From an uncultured delta proteobacterium (GTDB lineage Bacteria; Desulfobacterota; BSN033; UBA1163), in assembly GCA_963827685.1 (NCBI GenBank), contig CAWHBU010000002.1:1024001-1088000 (forward strand): 64,000 bases of DNA. The letters run 5' to 3'. The notes beneath the pieces are model-generated. The model was not told where the DNA came from, made no database searches, and saw only the letters and a program-made list of their open reading frames with translations. A program made the translations under genes and the position numbers. Shown in pieces: positions 18,310-63,064 of this stretch (positions are counted from its first letter, which is position 1; each line of letters begins with the position of its first letter).

Positions 18310-18960
18310 TTAAGCTCTTGGCTTCCAATTGAGAACAACTTTCTCTTCGATCAGGACTCGGTCTTTCTCAACCGTACTCGGAATCACTTCAGGTGGGTAA
18401 TTCATACAGCCCCCCTTAATCCCTTTCAGGGTCTCTAAATTCCACTCGGTGGCGCATGCATTGCATACGATGGCTTTATCCTGAATGTGAAAACGAGTTG
18501 ATCGACACGGCTCACACATGCTGATGGCGGTTACCACTCTTCCAGCTAAGGTGACATAGGCAAGGAGGGGAACCTTCACCCCATGACCCTCATATTCAAA
18601 CCGAACCATCTTTTTCTCTTTTACTACATCGATGGGGATGGAGATTTTTCCATTTTCGACCTTTGCCTCAATATCGGTCATCGAAATCGTCTGGCCTGAA
18701 TAGTCCACCCTCTCCATCACCTTCTGCTGAGCGGCTATCTTTGGATTGGCTATCGTTTTCCCCTGGATGATCCAGAAAGCAACTCCTCCTGCTGCAAAAG
18801 CGACAATGATTAATGTGATCCACATCCAAGGCGACTTCTTCTTGCCCAAAACCTTATCTCTCTTATCCTTTAATGAAGAATTGGAAAGGAGAAACCCACA
18901 TTTCTTACAGAAATGGTTCAGATCATCATTCTTTGTTCGACATTCCGGACATACCTTCAT
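18310..18960 (-). CDS. Zinc-ribbon plus DUF2318 membrane-anchored metal/Fe-S protein
   Basis: CPEC..FCKKC, TM, CEPC..CNAC..W..GGC..YP. Confidence 0.78.
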   Translation of the reverse strand: MKVCPECRTKNDDLNHFCKKCGFLLSNSSLKDKRDKVLGKKKSPWMWITLIIVAFAAGGVAFWIIQGKTIANPKIAAQQKVMERVDYSGQTISMTDIEAKVENGKISIPIDVVKEKKMVRFEYEGHGVKVPLLAYVTLAGRVVTAISMCEPCRSTRFHIQDKAIVCNACATEWNLETLKGIKGGCMNYPPEVIPSTVEKDRVLIEEKVVLNWKPRA

Positions 18961-19007
18961 CCAACCATCCTTCCTCTCTCCCCCCTGAACCTTACATGGT
19001 TCAGGGC

Positions 19008-20013
19008 TCACTCATTGATCATCAGTCTCTCAATTTCTCTTCTCGAAACGGATGAAGCAGACAGAGACCGATGGTGATCTTCCCCAACACCTTTATAGGT
19101 TACTTCTGCATTCCCTAAATCCTTTGTCTTACTATAATGAGCCGTGATGGCTGCCGCTTTCTCAATATCTCCCTGATCAAGCTTCCCCCTGATGAGAGAA
19201 AGGGGCCCTGGAAAATTGGAAACCTTTAATAAAATGTCCCTCTCCTGAGCGAAGGTCTCGATCTTTTGATTCTCCTCCTCATTCCTCCCAACCACTAATT
19301 TAACTCCGTCGGAGAACCGAAAATGTCTCCCCATCTTAAGAAGGTGAACATCGTTGAGGGAAAAATCAGGTTTGTGAAGCATCAAGTCTTTCATACGCTT
19401 TGCAAACCCAGGATCTGTAAGAAGGCAACCTCCTGCAGGGCATGGGTAGTCATGAATGCCGTAATGCCCTGCCAGCTCGATCTGCGGCTTTCTTGAACGG
19501 CCCTGAAACTTCAGCAGCTTTTCCCGATCCACCCATCCTTCTTTCTCCGGGATCGTGGCGGGAAGGCCCATGGCAGAGAGAGGTCGTAAAATAAAACCCT
19601 CGAGCCCCGCTTCCTTTTCAATCAGCCGCATCGCATCTTTTCTTTGGGACATAGGTCTTTGTCCCAACACTTCACCCGTGACGATGAAAGCGGCTCCTGA
19701 CTCTTCCATGTAGGCCTTTGCCCTCTTCAGCATGAAGATCCGGCAATCGATGCACGGATTCATATTTCTTCCATAGCCATGTCTGGGATGCTTCACGACA
19801 CTAAGGTACTCTTCGGAAACGTTGAATACCCTCAAAGGAATGCCCAAGGTGTCAACGGCCTTCTGAGAAGCCAGACAGGTGGCTCCCCGATTGGTGCAGG
19901 TGCAAAATACCGTCATAAAATTGAGGGCCTCTAATTCAACCCCTTGCTCTATGACGACCTTGGCTGCGAGTGTACTATCGAGCCCCTCCGGATAGGAGAG
20001 CGATCGCCTTCAT
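19008..20013 (-). CDS. ThiI/MnmA-like PP-loop tRNA sulfurtransferase (one extra base at 19983-19986)
   Basis: MKAIALLSGG-LDS restored by removing one base; NPCIDCR, TGEVLGQRPMSQ, PAGGCLLT. Confidence 0.82.
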
Positions 20014-20828
20014 CCTAAAACCTCATTCATCGATCCAGAACGAAAACCTTGAAGATCCAATGTAATATAGCGATAACCAATCTCTCTCAAACGACTCACC
20101 ACTTTTTCTCTCAATGAACCATTCATCAAACGTGCCATTTCTTCGTTGAGGATTTCGATTCTTGCCAGGCTTCCATAATGACGCACGCGAACCTGTTTGA
20201 ATCCCAGGCCAAATAAAAAATCCTCTGCTTCGTCAACCATTCTCAACCCCTGCTCAGTAATTTCCTCTCCATAAGGAAATCGCGAGGCGAGGCAAGCGAA
20301 GGAAGGTTTATCCCAAGTGGGAAGCCCTAACTCTTTGGATAATTCCCTCACCTCTATCTTGGCAAACAATGCTTCTTTGAGCGGGCTTCTGATTCCCAAC
20401 TCCTGAATCGCCATCCTTCCGGGTCTATGGTCCTTGTCGTCGTCTAAGGTGGAACCTTCGACAATAAAAGGGATCGCTTCTTCTTTGGCTACTTCCAGTA
20501 ATTCTCTGAAGAGCTTCTCTTTACAATAGTAGCATCGGTTGGGAGGATTTTCAGAGAATCCGGGAATCTCCAACTCATTCGATTCGATCAAGCGGTGTCT
20601 GGCTCCCAAAGTCTGGATCAGTTTCTTGACTCCCGCTAATTCCCTTTCAGGATAAAGGGGAGAGAGTGCCGTGACAGCAAATACATTTTTATCCCCAAGG
20701 GTATCTTGAGCTACTTTGAGGAGGAGTGTACTATCCACCCCTCCTGAAAAGGCCACCAGAACCTTCCCCATGGATTGAAATATTTCCCTTAATCTTTGAG
20801 CCTTAGTTTTTAACTCTAAACTCATCAC
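20010..20828 (-). CDS. larE: ATP-dependent sulfur transferase LarE
   Basis: SGGVDS, RCYYCK, RPG, ACLASRFPYG, GFRSGSMN. Confidence 0.92.
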   Translation of the reverse strand: MMSLELKTKAQRLREIFQSMGKVLVAFSGGVDSTLLLKVAQDTLGDKNVFAVTALSPLYPERELAGVKKLIQTLGARHRLIESNELEIPGFSENPPNRCYYCKEKLFRELLEVAKEEAIPFIVEGSTLDDDKDHRPGRMAIQELGIRSPLKEALFAKIEVRELSKELGLPTWDKPSFACLASRFPYGEEITEQGLRMVDEAEDFLFGLGFKQVRVRHYGSLARIEILNEEMARLMNGSLREKVVSRLREIGYRYITLDLQGFRSGSMNEVLG

Positions 20829-20947
20829 TCTTTCATTCCGTGTCCCTGCCTACCGGCAGGCAGGCGTGTCGCGTGTTACGTTACCGTATTATATTTTTTC
20901 ACTTATAACTCATAACTCCTAACTCACCAGTTGCATAAAAAAAGTTC

Positions 20948-21187
20948 TAAAAGGTAGTTGGGTGTCCTGGGCCGGCAAAAAACATAATAATAACCCTACC
21001 TCTCCGGGAGGTAACCCGTCCATTGGACGGGATACCTCATAACCTTTACAGCGGAACCTTTTAAGTTTTCGCTACTTCGTTTCCAGACACACTTCAAAGG
21101 TTACCTGAGGTGACATCGCATGTTCCCCATAAAACATAGCAAAGAACCGCTTGGTAAAGGTTTGGAAACACACTCAACTACCTTTTA
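20948..21187. ncRNA. Unassigned ~240-nt structured element (ncRNA or MITE)
   Basis: 18-bp terminal inverted repeat with one mismatch enclosing several nested stems. Confidence 0.5.
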
Positions 21188-21201
21188 ATACAACAAATGG
21201 A

Positions 21202-22284
21202 TTAACTCAAAACTTCTTTGATCCATCCTCCACCGAGCACTGTTTCTCCGTCATAAAAAACAGCGGCCTGCCCAGGGGTGATGGCCTTCTGAGGGGATTC
21301 AAACTTCACTTCCAATTCACCTTCTCCTTTTGGAGAAAGGCTGGCCTCCGAACCAGGATGATTATACCTGATCTTCACCTGTGTGTGATGGGAAGGAACC
21401 ATTTTCTGTGGCATAATCCAGTTGACAGAATCAACGAGGAATGTATCACCATAGACTTCTTCTTCTCCTCCAACAACAATCACATTCTTTTCTCGATCGA
21501 TCCCAATCACATAGAGAGGCTTTCCTTTTGCCAGGCGGAGCCCCCTTCGTTGTCCAATGGTGTAGAAAGGGATTCCTTTATGTTTTCCCAAGACATTCCC
21601 CTTCCTATCCACAATGGGACCCGGTCCAAAGGACTTCTCTAACCTCTCGGATAAAAAGAAATGATAAGACGATTCCTGAATAAAACAGACCTCCTGACTT
21701 TCGGGTTTATCATGGACTCGAAGACCCCGTTGAAGCGCCTTCTTCCTCACTTCCTCTTTTCGAAGTTCCCCCAATGGAAAAAGAGTATGGCGTAATTGGT
21801 CTTGAGTTAAAGAGAAGAGGACGTAGGATTGATCTTTCTTCCGATCCACCCCTTTTTTTAAAAGATAACGCTCAATCCTTTCATCGAAATCCAATCTGGC
21901 ATAATGACCTGTGGCAATAAAATCGGCCTCCAGTTCCAACGCCTTCTCTAAAAAAGAACCAAACTTTACTTTCTCATTACAGAGGACGCAAGGATTGGGC
22001 GTTTTCCCCTTAGCGTATTCTTCACAAAAATATTGGACGACTTCTTTTTCAAACTCCTCCCTGAGCTGGAAAACATAAAAAGGAATCTCAAGTTGAAGAG
22101 CAACCCGTCTGGCATCCTCGATATCGGCGAGACCGCAACATCGGGCCGGCCCTCCTTGGGCCTTATCCGTCATTCCGATGCACATCGTTGCTCCAATGAC
22201 TTCATAACCCTCCTCCTTGAGAAGCCAGGCAGTCGTGCTCGAATCAACCCCGCCACTCATGGCAACAACTACCCTTTGACTCAT
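21202..22284 (-). CDS. mnmA: tRNA 2-thiouridylase
   Basis: SGGVDS, TPNPCVLCN, ATGHY, KDQSY, ESQEVCF, TPGQ. Confidence 0.95.
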   Translation of the reverse strand: MSQRVVVAMSGGVDSSTTAWLLKEEGYEVIGATMCIGMTDKAQGGPARCCGLADIEDARRVALQLEIPFYVFQLREEFEKEVVQYFCEEYAKGKTPNPCVLCNEKVKFGSFLEKALELEADFIATGHYARLDFDERIERYLLKKGVDRKKDQSYVLFSLTQDQLRHTLFPLGELRKEEVRKKALQRGLRVHDKPESQEVCFIQESSYHFFLSERLEKSFGPGPIVDRKGNVLGKHKGIPFYTIGQRRGLRLAKGKPLYVIGIDREKNVIVVGGEEEVYGDTFLVDSVNWIMPQKMVPSHHTQVKIRYNHPGSEASLSPKGEGELEVKFESPQKAITPGQAAVFYDGETVLGGGWIKEVLS

Positions 22285-22487
22285 CTCCGCTTCACCCTTT
22301 TAGGGTATCGTTGGCATTCCTGCCTACTGGCAGGAAGGCATTGCCGACAATATCTCAATTCGCCCCCATCAATGAGGGCGCTGCAATGTTTATCAGGTGC
22401 AAAAATAATAATGGTTTATGAATTTTATATCGGTTAACGAGAATCTCTTCGCTTGGACCCTTGAATTCTAGGCCCCTTGACCCCTTA

Positions 22488-22895
22488 TCAAAAGAGGATT
22501 TCCATAGCCTGATAAGGACAGACCGGAATGCACAGTTCGCAGGCGATGCACTTGTCCCGTTTAAAGGAGACCTCCATATTCGTCCTTTGGACATCCAGTG
22601 CCTTCGTGGGACAGACACTGATGCAGGCCGTGCAATGGGTACAACGATCCTCATGCCATTTGACATCCTGAGCCAAAGACTGGGTCTCCACACCTATCTC
22701 ACTGAGATATTTAAGCCCTGCCTCCATCCCGGCCCTCTTCCCTGTAAGCTCTAATACGAGTCTTCCCTCCTCCTTGGGGGTAATCCGGGCTCTCATAATA
22801 TTGACGATCAAATCATAATCCTTCACTAATTTAGAGATGACGGGCTGATCGACGAGATGGGAAGGATAATTGAGAACAATTCTTTTTTTCTGCAT
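22488..22895 (-). CDS. NIL domain plus 2[4Fe-4S] protein (MA1822-like)
   Basis: NIM.ARI NIL domain; two CxxCxxCxxxCP. Confidence 0.88.
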   Translation of the reverse strand: MQKKRIVLNYPSHLVDQPVISKLVKDYDLIVNIMRARITPKEEGRLVLELTGKRAGMEAGLKYLSEIGVETQSLAQDVKWHEDRCTHCTACISVCPTKALDVQRTNMEVSFKRDKCIACELCIPVCPYQAMEILF

Positions 22896-23047
22896 GGTTC
22901 ACCCCTTTTGAAATTCAAATTCCAAATTCCAATACCCAAATCCCAAATAATTTCCAATCACCCAGATTCCAAATAACCAAACCAATTATTTCGGTCATTG
23001 GAGCTTTGGTAACTATTTGATTATTGGTGCTTGGAATTTAGTGCTTC

Positions 23048-24259
23048 TCATGTTTTTTTAATAGGTCGCTCTTTTAAGGTTTTAAAAACGATCCCGGAAT
23101 CGGCAGAAGGGAGAGGTTCAACGGGTTGGGTCAAAAAGAACTTACCCGCTTCGATCCACTCCTTCAAGGTCTGAGCGACCTCTCTGGCTTTCAGATAGCT
23201 GGAAAGGCCAGCGGTGGGAATCTCTTTTCCTTGAACCGTAATTCTCCCGCTTTTCAGTTGCTTGTAATTCACCTCCCCGATGCTTCCGGGAATACATTGA
23301 GGATAGGAATCGCTATAGTCCACCACTTGAGCCACGATTTCCTCATCCCGAACAGCAGTATACCGAAGGATCTCCTCATTTAAGACGGGAATGGGAACTC
23401 CAATTCCTACGGTGAGGGTTACCCCATACCCAGTATAGGAAGTCCCTCTCAGCCACTTTGAACTCATCATCTTGAGATCACCCTTTACGGCAAGGGTTCC
23501 AGCGGTCATTTTTGGAATACCGCCCTCCGTTCGTTTCACATCGGGATTATGCTGAGTTCCATTTCCCACGACATACCCTATCCCTCCACCCAAAAAGATT
23601 CGAGTACCCATACCTATGGTTTTGTAAAAAGGATCATTCATGAGGGGACTCAGCTGTCCAGCGTTGCAGTAGTTAGCATTAGCCATCTTGGGCTGAAGAA
23701 CCCCCATATAGGTATAGATCACTCGATCTGAAAGGTTGACGGCAACATTATAGTTCTGGTAGGCATTTCTTATGTTGAAAAGAACTGCCTCGTTCATATC
23801 CTTGAGGGAGATATAAGTCTCCAAGGTTTTTCGGGGATAGCAATCCGTTCCATAAGCTGTTGCAGTGAGTCTCACATCCTTCCCCGCAACCAGTTCCTCA
23901 ATTACATAAGCTCCCCCATAAGCGAACTTTCCCGGATAGATTTTGTTTCTCGGATCATCATCTGGCATTGCAGTCGCTCCCAAGAACAAATCCACTGCTG
24001 CAAGACCTGTATAGACCGGGACATCATTGAGATAGGTCTTTCCTCCTCCCAGTTTGATCCGGGGCTTTGTGTGTCCCACATTGAAATAGGCCCCCGAAGA
24101 ACACATTGGACCAAAGGTACCTGTGGTGACGACATCCACTTCACGAGCTGCCTTTTTTATTCCCTTTCCTGCAGCATAATCGATAATCTCCTCGGCCGTT
24201 AACACAACCGCCTTCCCTTTCTTAATCTTCTCATTTATTTCCTCAATGGTTTTGGCCAT
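23048..24259 (-). CDS. L-aspartate semialdehyde sulfurtransferase (DUF39/MA1821-like)
   Basis: DVVTTGTFGPMCSSG, GTDCYP, RNAYQNY, GQLSPL.NDP. Confidence 0.9.
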   Translation of the reverse strand: MAKTIEEINEKIKKGKAVVLTAEEIIDYAAGKGIKKAAREVDVVTTGTFGPMCSSGAYFNVGHTKPRIKLGGGKTYLNDVPVYTGLAAVDLFLGATAMPDDDPRNKIYPGKFAYGGAYVIEELVAGKDVRLTATAYGTDCYPRKTLETYISLKDMNEAVLFNIRNAYQNYNVAVNLSDRVIYTYMGVLQPKMANANYCNAGQLSPLMNDPFYKTIGMGTRIFLGGGIGYVVGNGTQHNPDVKRTEGGIPKMTAGTLAVKGDLKMMSSKWLRGTSYTGYGVTLTVGIGVPIPVLNEEILRYTAVRDEEIVAQVVDYSDSYPQCIPGSIGEVNYKQLKSGRITVQGKEIPTAGLSSYLKAREVAQTLKEWIEAGKFFLTQPVEPLPSADSGIVFKTLKERPIKKT

Positions 24260-62741: not shown

Positions 62742-62989
62742 ACAATCCTCCTCCCAGTTTTCGCCCGATAAGGAATTATTTTCTTAGCTCTCTGCTTTTG
62801 GCACTTGCAACAGATTCAACCCGCAATCAATATTCCGATCCAGCCAAACCTCCATAGCTCTTGACACTAACGTTGAAGGCCCCTATCCGGATGGTCTGAT
62901 GCGGTCTTCTCTCCATCCAGACTCTTGCGGTATAAATTAAAAACCGGATTACCTGCTTAAGAAAGCCACGGTGATCCGGTTCGTCTATC

Positions 62990-63064
62990 CTCGGCAACCC
63001 GGCTATCCCATCGGGACCCGTGGCTTTCCGTCCCACGATTACTCGTGGTTTGGCTTTATCGGTA
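62990..63064 (-). ncRNA. c-di-GMP-I (GEMM) riboswitch
   Basis: AAAGCCAAACCACGAGTAATCGTGGGACGGAAAGCCACGGGTC..GATAGCCGGGTTGCCG; downstream CCGTGGCTTTC anti-stem. Confidence 0.9.

Follow-up and report, generated by a model that had tools for sequence, protein, structure and literature searches.

MITEs are often, though not obligatorily, accompanied by a related autonomous IS, and as a rule it is their termini that are conserved and their interior that varies. A REPIN consists of two short REP units as a doublet, is associated with an IS200-like Y1 enzyme, and is not known to have a target duplication; nor is peel-and-paste transposition known to leave one. In the attC sites of integrons, structure is conserved over sequence, one strand is active as a fold, and the orientation relative to replication matters. 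To our knowledge, the IS110/IS1111 family makes neither terminal inverted repeats (TIRs) nor regular target duplications. We know of no described bacterial transposon family that unites the reading of a folded strand, an 8-bp duplication, and a fixed polarity toward the replication fork.

The Delihas reviews (PMC2229807, PMC3184786) concern bacterial MITEs that fold as long imperfect palindromes, such as ERIC/RU-1, Correia, and RUP. For the IS200 family, PMC5027513 describes peel-and-paste transposition, in which one strand is integrated into a specific single-stranded DNA target; it and section 12 of PMC3971601 give orientation toward the G-rich strand as the behavior of IS200. Replication-linked orientation bias is reported in that part of PMC3971601 for several IS families, DDE types included.

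The element analyzed here lies in a window of 64,000 nt, the whole stretch of DNA under study, to which all window positions refer. The window belongs to a draft genome, G000 (5.23 Mb in 14 contigs; 94.5% complete, 8% contamination). Two minus-strand genes, mnmA and larE, are separated there by a gap of 373 nt, and a copy of a mobile repeat sits inside the gap. On the gene strand, the upstream neighbor of the repeat is mnmA (21202..22284; tRNA 2-thiouridine synthase; Pfam PF03054; NCBIfam NF001138, 446 bits), and the downstream neighbor is larE (20010..20828; sacrificial sulfur transferase; NCBIfam TIGR00268, 332 bits against a cut-off of 150). MnmA and LarE are part of a minus-strand sulfur-transfer cluster at 18310-24259 that also encodes HcyBio (23048-24259) and two further proteins, a ThiI/NFACT-R_2 protein (19008-19916) and an FtrD-like Fe-S membrane protein (18310-19011). 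The spacer contains, in addition, a GC-rich palindrome of about 23 nt at 20842-20866, of the CCTGCC...GGCAGG type, with about 50 occurrences in G000. A different hairpin of this kind is found in the mnmA-larE spacer of a relative, G010.

The whole mobile element is 275 nt long and extends from 20927 to 21201 on the plus strand, as defined by an alignment of 16 copies, by comparison with empty sites, and by a covariance-model match at 21039-21167. The first-pass annotation had drawn its limits at 20948-21187, which falls short on both sides, as the unit comprises 20927-21201 and, in addition, direct repeats of 8 bp. Comparison of filled and empty sites identifies the latter as a target-site duplication, with a left copy, CTAACTCA, at 20919..20926 and a right copy, TTAACTCA, at 21202..21209 (plus strand). 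The two octamers differ by one substitution, and the empty sites of relatives hold the octamer once. Bases 21202-21204 of the right octamer are the mnmA stop codon (TAA, minus strand). That is, the insertion took place right at the gene end.

The window copy is a long-form member of subfamily A, and its folded strand is the plus strand of the window, on which all of its parts are given here. The 16-copy alignment defines a left TIR with an A-run (20927..20947), in which GTTGCAT (20930-36) pairs, in the window copy, with ATACAAC (21188-94). The outer arm, P1, is the closing stem; its 5' strand (20948..20965) and 3' strand (21170..21187) are supported by the window fold and the family consensus, and they form 17 Watson-Crick pairs and one G.T pair on the plus strand. 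An accessory insert of 70 nt (20971..21040) is missing from the common short form. It includes a hairpin (21008-21038) that differs in the orthologous copy of another relative, G009. The P2 helix, whose 3' strand comes from the consensus structure, joins AACCTTTAC (21041..21049) to GTAAAGGTT (21154..21162), and it is a covarying helix corresponding to columns 43-52/185-194 of a 100-copy alignment, A1. P3 pairs GCGG (21051..21054), nearly invariant in the A1 consensus, with CCGC (21147..21150; consensus structure). Enclosed by P3 is a variable interior (21055..21146) that has, according to the window fold and the alignment, local hairpins at 21100-21114 and 21120-21137, the second of which exposes a semi-conserved CCCATAA loop. 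The TGGAA that lies 3' of the P2 3' strand is part of a conserved purine-rich internal loop.

Much of the structure in the first-pass annotation can be recognized in this layout. The closing stem and the hairpin at 21008-21038 are present as described. A pairing of TAACCTTT with AAAGGTTA had also been proposed; it is not the conserved one, as the family pairs AACCTTTAC with GTAAAGGTT. A further pairing, ACCTC..GGG/CCTGAGGT, is absent from both the minimum-energy fold and the consensus. The motif AAAACATA does occur twice, at about 20980 and about 21132, as had been noticed, and it is not a conserved feature, for its first copy lies in the insert that most family members lack. The minus-strand T-run exists too, as the A-run at 20937-43, and was read as preceding larE; it is not specific to larE but belongs to the conserved left end of the family.

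The plus strand of the region folds at -88.2 kcal/mol (z -7.0) and the minus strand at -91.2 kcal/mol (z -4.9); neither value was reached by any of 200 shuffles. No ORF is found inside the 275-nt copy, and coding potential of the repeat was dropped because copies differ by frame-breaking indels. A scan in and around the window copy found no sigma-70-like promoter. Scanning of the copy for terminator-like sites returned a single one, inside the accessory insert, against a shuffle mean of 0.8.

At the gathering threshold, an Rfam scan of the whole window returned just a tRNA and a c-di-GMP-I-GGC riboswitch aptamer (62989-63063, minus strand; 70.8 bits against a gathering score of 59), both located elsewhere than the repeat. 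From 20700 to 21350 there is no Rfam 15 match to any known family at E <= 10, the TPP, SAM, cobalamin, Moco, 6S, and ribozyme families included; the known-family match that would have counted against the first-pass annotation did not appear. Rfam scans of 20 other copies found nothing recurrent in the core. Matches to Whalefall-1 occur below threshold (L177 69-125, L165, and L180 89-150, minus strand; 16-20 bits against a gathering score of 37), and they map to small GC-rich repeats next to some copies, outside the core; the Whalefall-1 motif may be related to these flanking repeats, or the matches may be due to chance. A partial cobalamin riboswitch match of 27.4 bits, cut by the sequence end, adjoins another copy (L178 405-475; contig C1:343707-343777 of G000). 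The literature on MITEs in Syntrophaceae yielded no paper, and among the titles listed by broader searches none deals with the repeat.

The element is far from confined to the sulfur cluster. With a 256-nt window query, blastn finds 21 places in G000, where copies are 68-87% identical to the window copy. Iterated nhmmer searches give 52 matches; a covariance model finds 53 loci with 56 matches in all, of which three are weak echoes on the opposite strand. All G000 copies lie in short intergenic gaps. Most copies are about 200 nt long and lack window positions 20971-21040, the accessory insert being limited to a minority; contigs with other copies, when aligned to the window, jump exactly from 20970 to 21041. 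Copies also vary by indels of 1-2 nt and by inserts. In several of them, a 34-nt hairpin related to the palindrome at 20842-20866 is inserted between P2 and P3. Sixteen full-length copies define a conserved unit with a left end of GTTGCAT plus an A-run and a right end of ATGCAAC, the two ends being mutually complementary. The weaker nhmmer matches represent other subfamilies, with outer arms unrelated in sequence and a core (P2, P3, and the purine-rich loop) common to all. The 275-nt window copy is one of many copies of a dispersed, non-coding mobile repeat.

By the covariance model, 52 of the 54 genomes of f1, the taxonomic family to which the window belongs, contain the repeat, and all 21 genera of f1 are represented; positive genomes have from 4 to at least 41 matches each (56 in G010), and the f1 total exceeds 1,600. 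The same model finds no copy in either of two sister families, represented by 8 and 5 genomes. Across an even sampling of the phylum, three of four f1 genomes were positive, and one weak, minimal copy was found among 147 others. A pattern scan of a public species collection matched at least 114 stretches, of which 79 were confirmed by nhmmer. Among the matches listed, 66 of 80 titles are of MAGs labeled Syntrophaceae, Syntrophorhabdus, Desulfobacterales, Thermodesulfobacteriota, or delta-proteobacterium, and the other 14 titles have other labels, with just one short contig among them confirmed by nhmmer. A contig of 2.3 kb titled as an Anaerolineales MAG (L076) holds a typical copy (nhmmer E 5e-40); its presence in a bin of an unrelated phylum is probably a binning error rather than transfer. 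Plasmid and phage collections gave no match to the repeat.

That the repeat has moved is seen by comparing filled with empty sites. The adjacency of mnmA and larE is retained in 16 of 16 genomes examined (G000-G015); the repeat occupies the spacer in two, G000 and G009, and the site is empty in the other 14. Spacer lengths are 373 nt in G000, about 345 nt in G009, and about 11-140 nt in the 14 others. The G009 copy is 83% identical to that of G000, with flanks that are 86% identical. On the gene strand, the duplicated octamer at mnmA-larE is TGAGTTAA, which is single in the empty sites of relatives. Two further filled/empty pairs were obtained by querying G000 with copies of relatives: in one, TTAACCCA is exact on both sides, and in the other, the octamers are GGCTTAAA and GACTTAAT. 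The duplication is therefore 8 bp in three of three clean comparisons, other candidate pairs being too diverged to read. In a metagenome contig from a relative of about 89% identity, position 20830 is joined to 21212 with 13 other letters between. The 8-bp duplications and the TTAA-containing targets suggest, at the sequence level, staggered cuts of the DDE type. As for movement within G000, the 68-87% identity to the window copy is not evidence of recent transposition. The genome has other small repeats as well. At about position 446900 of contig C6, a palindromic repeat of about 50 nt (C-rich run ... G-rich run) is present where a relative has an empty site, and several small hairpin repeats colonize the intergenic spacers of G000.

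Alignment A1 comprises 100 short-form copies from G000, relatives, and public MAGs. Its consensus contains P1 (12 + 2 pairs), P2 (10 bp), and P3 (4 bp, GCGG/CCGC, nearly invariant). P1 and P2 are separated by a purine-rich loop that is symmetric and has GGA in each strand; P2 and P3 are separated by a 1x3 internal loop. Standard pairs fill 93.6% of 2,788 cells (28 pairs, 100 copies), versus 77.5% in 500 shuffles, none of which is as high. Double-change cells number 565, versus 186 in shuffles, and compensatory changes are seen at 23 of the 28 pairs. The shuffle control overstates significance, as the sequences are related; the control in which partner columns are slid by 1-3 positions does not have that weakness, and it gives 39-48% pairing. 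More generally, the mutual relatedness of copies and genomes overstates p-values, and the assemblies are drafts. The long outer arms differ in sequence between subfamilies, with their complementarity kept. Between the P3 strands lies an interior of about 105 nt, with local hairpins and the semi-conserved CCCATAA motif, for which no common structure was found across subfamilies.

The fold is specific to one strand. An A.C cell corresponds to a G.U pair on the opposite strand, and in the 28 consensus pairs there are 209 G.U cells versus 54 A.C cells; self-alignments of whole arms in 142 copies give 234 versus 81. Plus-strand mismatches between purines (AG 149, GA 137, GG 104) far outnumber those between pyrimidines (CC 27, TT 25, TC 23, CT 9). 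At the same locus, the covariance model scores about 142 bits on the plus strand versus 38 on the minus strand. The G.U excess might have been a by-product of the replication strand on which most copies lie; this was ruled out, since the G.U:A.C ratio is equal in both orientations (150:53 in the majority, 43:15 in the minority; Fisher p = 1.0). It follows that the fold belongs to the repeat's own plus strand. The repeat departs from the usual MITE pattern in having an internal, strand-specific, covarying core, diverging ends, and replication polarity.

That polarity was measured against both genes and replication. Among 132 copies with context, which are not fully independent as some loci are orthologous, 58 are antisense and 17 sense to co-directional genes, 24 are flanked by convergent or divergent gene pairs, and 33 are unscorable. 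The 99 scored copies sit at unrelated loci and do not keep to the sense-oriented 5' leader of any one class of genes, whereas a riboswitch or leader attenuator would do so. With respect to replication, the direction of which was deduced from GC skew in draft assemblies, the plus strand of the repeat lies in G000 on the locally C-rich strand in 38 cases, on the G-rich strand in 8, and is ambiguous in one. The bias is shared by subfamily A (15:3) and the others (23:5), and in G010, an assembly of two contigs, the C-rich:G-rich counts are 38:12 with 6 ambiguous. Where neighboring genes are on the C-rich strand, the repeat is there too in six of seven cases. Long ORFs are distributed 1054 on the G-rich versus 536 on the C-rich strand, which identifies the G-rich strand as the leading strand. 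As a control, 16 of the 17 scorable copies of a resident IS200-like element have their tnpA gene on the G-rich strand, and the bias of the repeat is nearly as strong as that of this element. The window copy has the majority orientation, with a local skew of -0.064. The replication strand is a better predictor of the orientation of the repeat than the neighboring genes are.

The gene or element that moves the repeat was sought in several ways. No recombinase gene adjoins the repeat at the roughly 150 copies examined, and the ORFs flanking the 52 nhmmer matches in G000 have no shared protein family. Within 1.5 kb of public-locus copies there are 681 ORFs, among which no neighbor gene is recurrent, the largest common cluster being an ABC ATPase at five loci. 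A search of G000 for pairs of terminal repeats gave no real inverted pair of repeat-like ends 0.5-4 kb apart; a search for end motifs plus duplication gave 179 long pairs, read as chance, and one artefact formed by two inverted IS copies. Five partial-match sites were retrieved from relatives, of which one, read fully, is an ordinary gene-less copy and four, scanned for matches to the repeat, gave only partial ones. Neither G000 nor the partial-match sites in relatives provided an autonomous IS with the same ends. The absence of an adjacent gene is compatible with a single host-resident enzyme that would act in trans.

Resident IS elements were considered as parents. The IS200-like element of G000 is about 650 bp long, encodes a 155-aa Y1 transposase with HUH and Tyr motifs, and is present in 18 identical copies. 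One of these interrupts a repeat copy on contig C1 (C1:347800-348760, L005), and 17 lie elsewhere. The element was rejected as a parent and is considered a passenger, as its ends are unrelated to those of the repeat and 17 of its 18 copies are outside the repeat. G000 also has four groups of DDE_Tnp_1 IS (L155-L164; 33 matches), one of which is about 1.33 kb long with 7-8-bp duplications. Two of the groups have ends of the ..CTGTTG..AAA type and appear to lie inside another repeated palindrome. The four groups were likewise rejected, as their ends differ from those of the repeat.

Of the ways in which the element might be understood, the one closest to its immediate setting is that of a cis-acting attenuator or terminator, either for control of larE or as a boundary between mnmA and larE, as the first-pass annotation suggested. 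The gene-strand transcript would indeed form a rod of -91.2 kcal/mol, with seven consecutive U residues after it immediately ahead of larE. We nevertheless consider this reading very improbable: the repeat occurs at 53 unrelated intergenic loci in G000 in both orientations, the spacer copy is absent from 14 of 16 relatives that retain the gene pair, the U-run is part of the family's consensus end, and the sole scored terminator-like site is in the accessory insert, at shuffle expectation (1 versus 0.8). The element is not a private switch of the sulfur cluster. Another suggestion, that of a non-autonomous remnant like IS110/IS1111, was right in that the repeat is a non-autonomous mobile element, and the repeat, which is structured, non-coding, about 200 nt long, and interrupted by internal loops, could also be the guide ("bridge" or "seek") RNA of such an element. 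The affiliation itself is just as hard to credit as an attenuator, as TIRs and a regular 8-bp duplication are present, no recombinase gene, DEDD or other, adjoins any copy examined, and Rfam gives no match. A single-stranded DNA recombination element akin to IS200/IS605 derivatives, REPINs, or attC sites, in which a HUH or tyrosine enzyme would cut and rejoin the folded plus strand, accounts for more: the strand-specific fold, the arms conserved in structure over sequence, and the strong replication-linked bias, of about the magnitude seen in the resident IS200-like element. It remains improbable, given that all three filled/empty comparisons show clean 8-bp duplications in place of insertion without duplication, that the ends are unlike those of the resident Y1 element, that the copies are not in arrays, and that the strand which folds well lies on the template of the leading strand, contrary to what is seen in the IS200 family.

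A further reading takes the core as a functional structured ncRNA. Each copy would be transcribed from the plus strand and would act in trans or as antisense, the latter also put forward in the first-pass annotation; the paired GGA loop might, for example, serve as a protein-binding site, and the arms would be the vehicle of the RNA. In favor of this reading are the covariation on one strand, rich in G.U pairs whichever way a copy is oriented, and the large excess of purine-purine over pyrimidine-pyrimidine mismatches on the plus strand; the conserved unpaired motifs, the conservation of the core while the arms drift, and the retention of the repeat in 52 of 54 f1 genomes fit as well. Set against this, the scan in and around the window copy gave no sigma-70-like promoter, the interior between the P3 strands is without common structure, and orientation tracks replication, not neighboring genes. 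Furthermore, 58 of the 75 copies between co-directional genes are antisense, so that read-through yields the other strand. On balance, we regard the ncRNA reading as rather unlikely.

The account that we favor is that the mnmA-larE element is a copy of a family-wide, non-autonomous, structured MITE and not a dedicated regulator of sulfur genes; we think this very probable. The repeat is short and non-coding, has TIRs and a fixed 8-bp duplication with empty sites, and exists in many dispersed copies. Its insertion at the mnmA stop codon most probably dates to a common ancestor of G000 and one close relative. Copies would be moved in trans by a DDE-type transposase, possibly host-resident, that makes 8-bp staggered cuts; insertion would be coupled to the replication fork, and the strand-specific fold would be needed in a single-stranded state. 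Fork-coupled insertion by a trans-acting enzyme is the most likely mechanism. The fold itself could well be read as folded DNA during mobilization; a more tentative idea is that it acts as RNA, and it may otherwise do nothing but keep the ends alike. At mnmA-larE, the effect is likely only incidental: a longer spacer, with a rod and a U-run in the operon transcript. Several observations count against the structured-MITE account. The autonomous partner was not found among the IS groups of G000, in the end-pair searches, or at the partial-match sites; the conserved interior with variable termini reverses the usual MITE pattern; and the 68-87% identity of G000 copies to the window copy does not show recent movement. 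It can also be imagined, although we think it unlikely, that the core is the functional unit of a new system, either an ncRNA class spread on self-complementary mobile arms or a module for folded-strand recognition by a host-resident enzyme with 8-bp duplication and fixed fork polarity.

For annotation, the finding removes a false lead, as the mnmA-larE spacer does not contain a sulfur-sensing riboswitch, and one covariance model can mask similar "orphan structures" in f1 genomes. For the biology of mobile DNA, the more than 1,600 copies in 53 genomes are a natural data set: a gene-less repeat with an internal strand-specific fold, diverging ends, and replication polarity despite target duplication. 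Two questions become testable: which features other than its ends a MITE requires, and how orientation is set by insertion coupled to the fork.

The comparison with known systems can now be drawn. Integron attC sites resemble the repeat in keeping structure over sequence, in having one folded strand, and in their replication-linked orientation, but the repeat is not in cassette arrays, has no integrase context, has a target duplication, and is much larger. With IS200/IS605 transposons (PMC5027513, PMC3971601), the repeat shares strand-specific folding, there of the ends, and a marked orientation bias relative to the replication fork, whereas the bias of the repeat is opposite in sense, it has a target duplication and no Y1 gene, and the ends of the resident IS200-like element are unrelated to its own. 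The REPIN-RAYT system (compare PMC3116915) is similar in that hairpin-forming intergenic repeats are present in tens of copies through a bacterial lineage with no adjacent gene; unlike REPINs, the repeat is 200-330 nt long, with a complex core and 8-bp duplications. There is also a likeness to ERIC/RU-1, Correia, RUP, and similar MITEs (PMC2229807, PMC3184786): like them, the repeat is small, gene-less, multi-copy, and intergenic in both orientations, with TIRs, a target duplication, a rod fold, and longer forms produced by inserts at fixed internal sites. Unlike those MITEs, it is restricted to one family of Thermodesulfobacteriota-labeled genomes and has no known parent IS; its best-conserved part is the internal core, with arms and ends that vary by subfamily, and its fold is strand-specific and covarying, with a strong replication-linked orientation bias.
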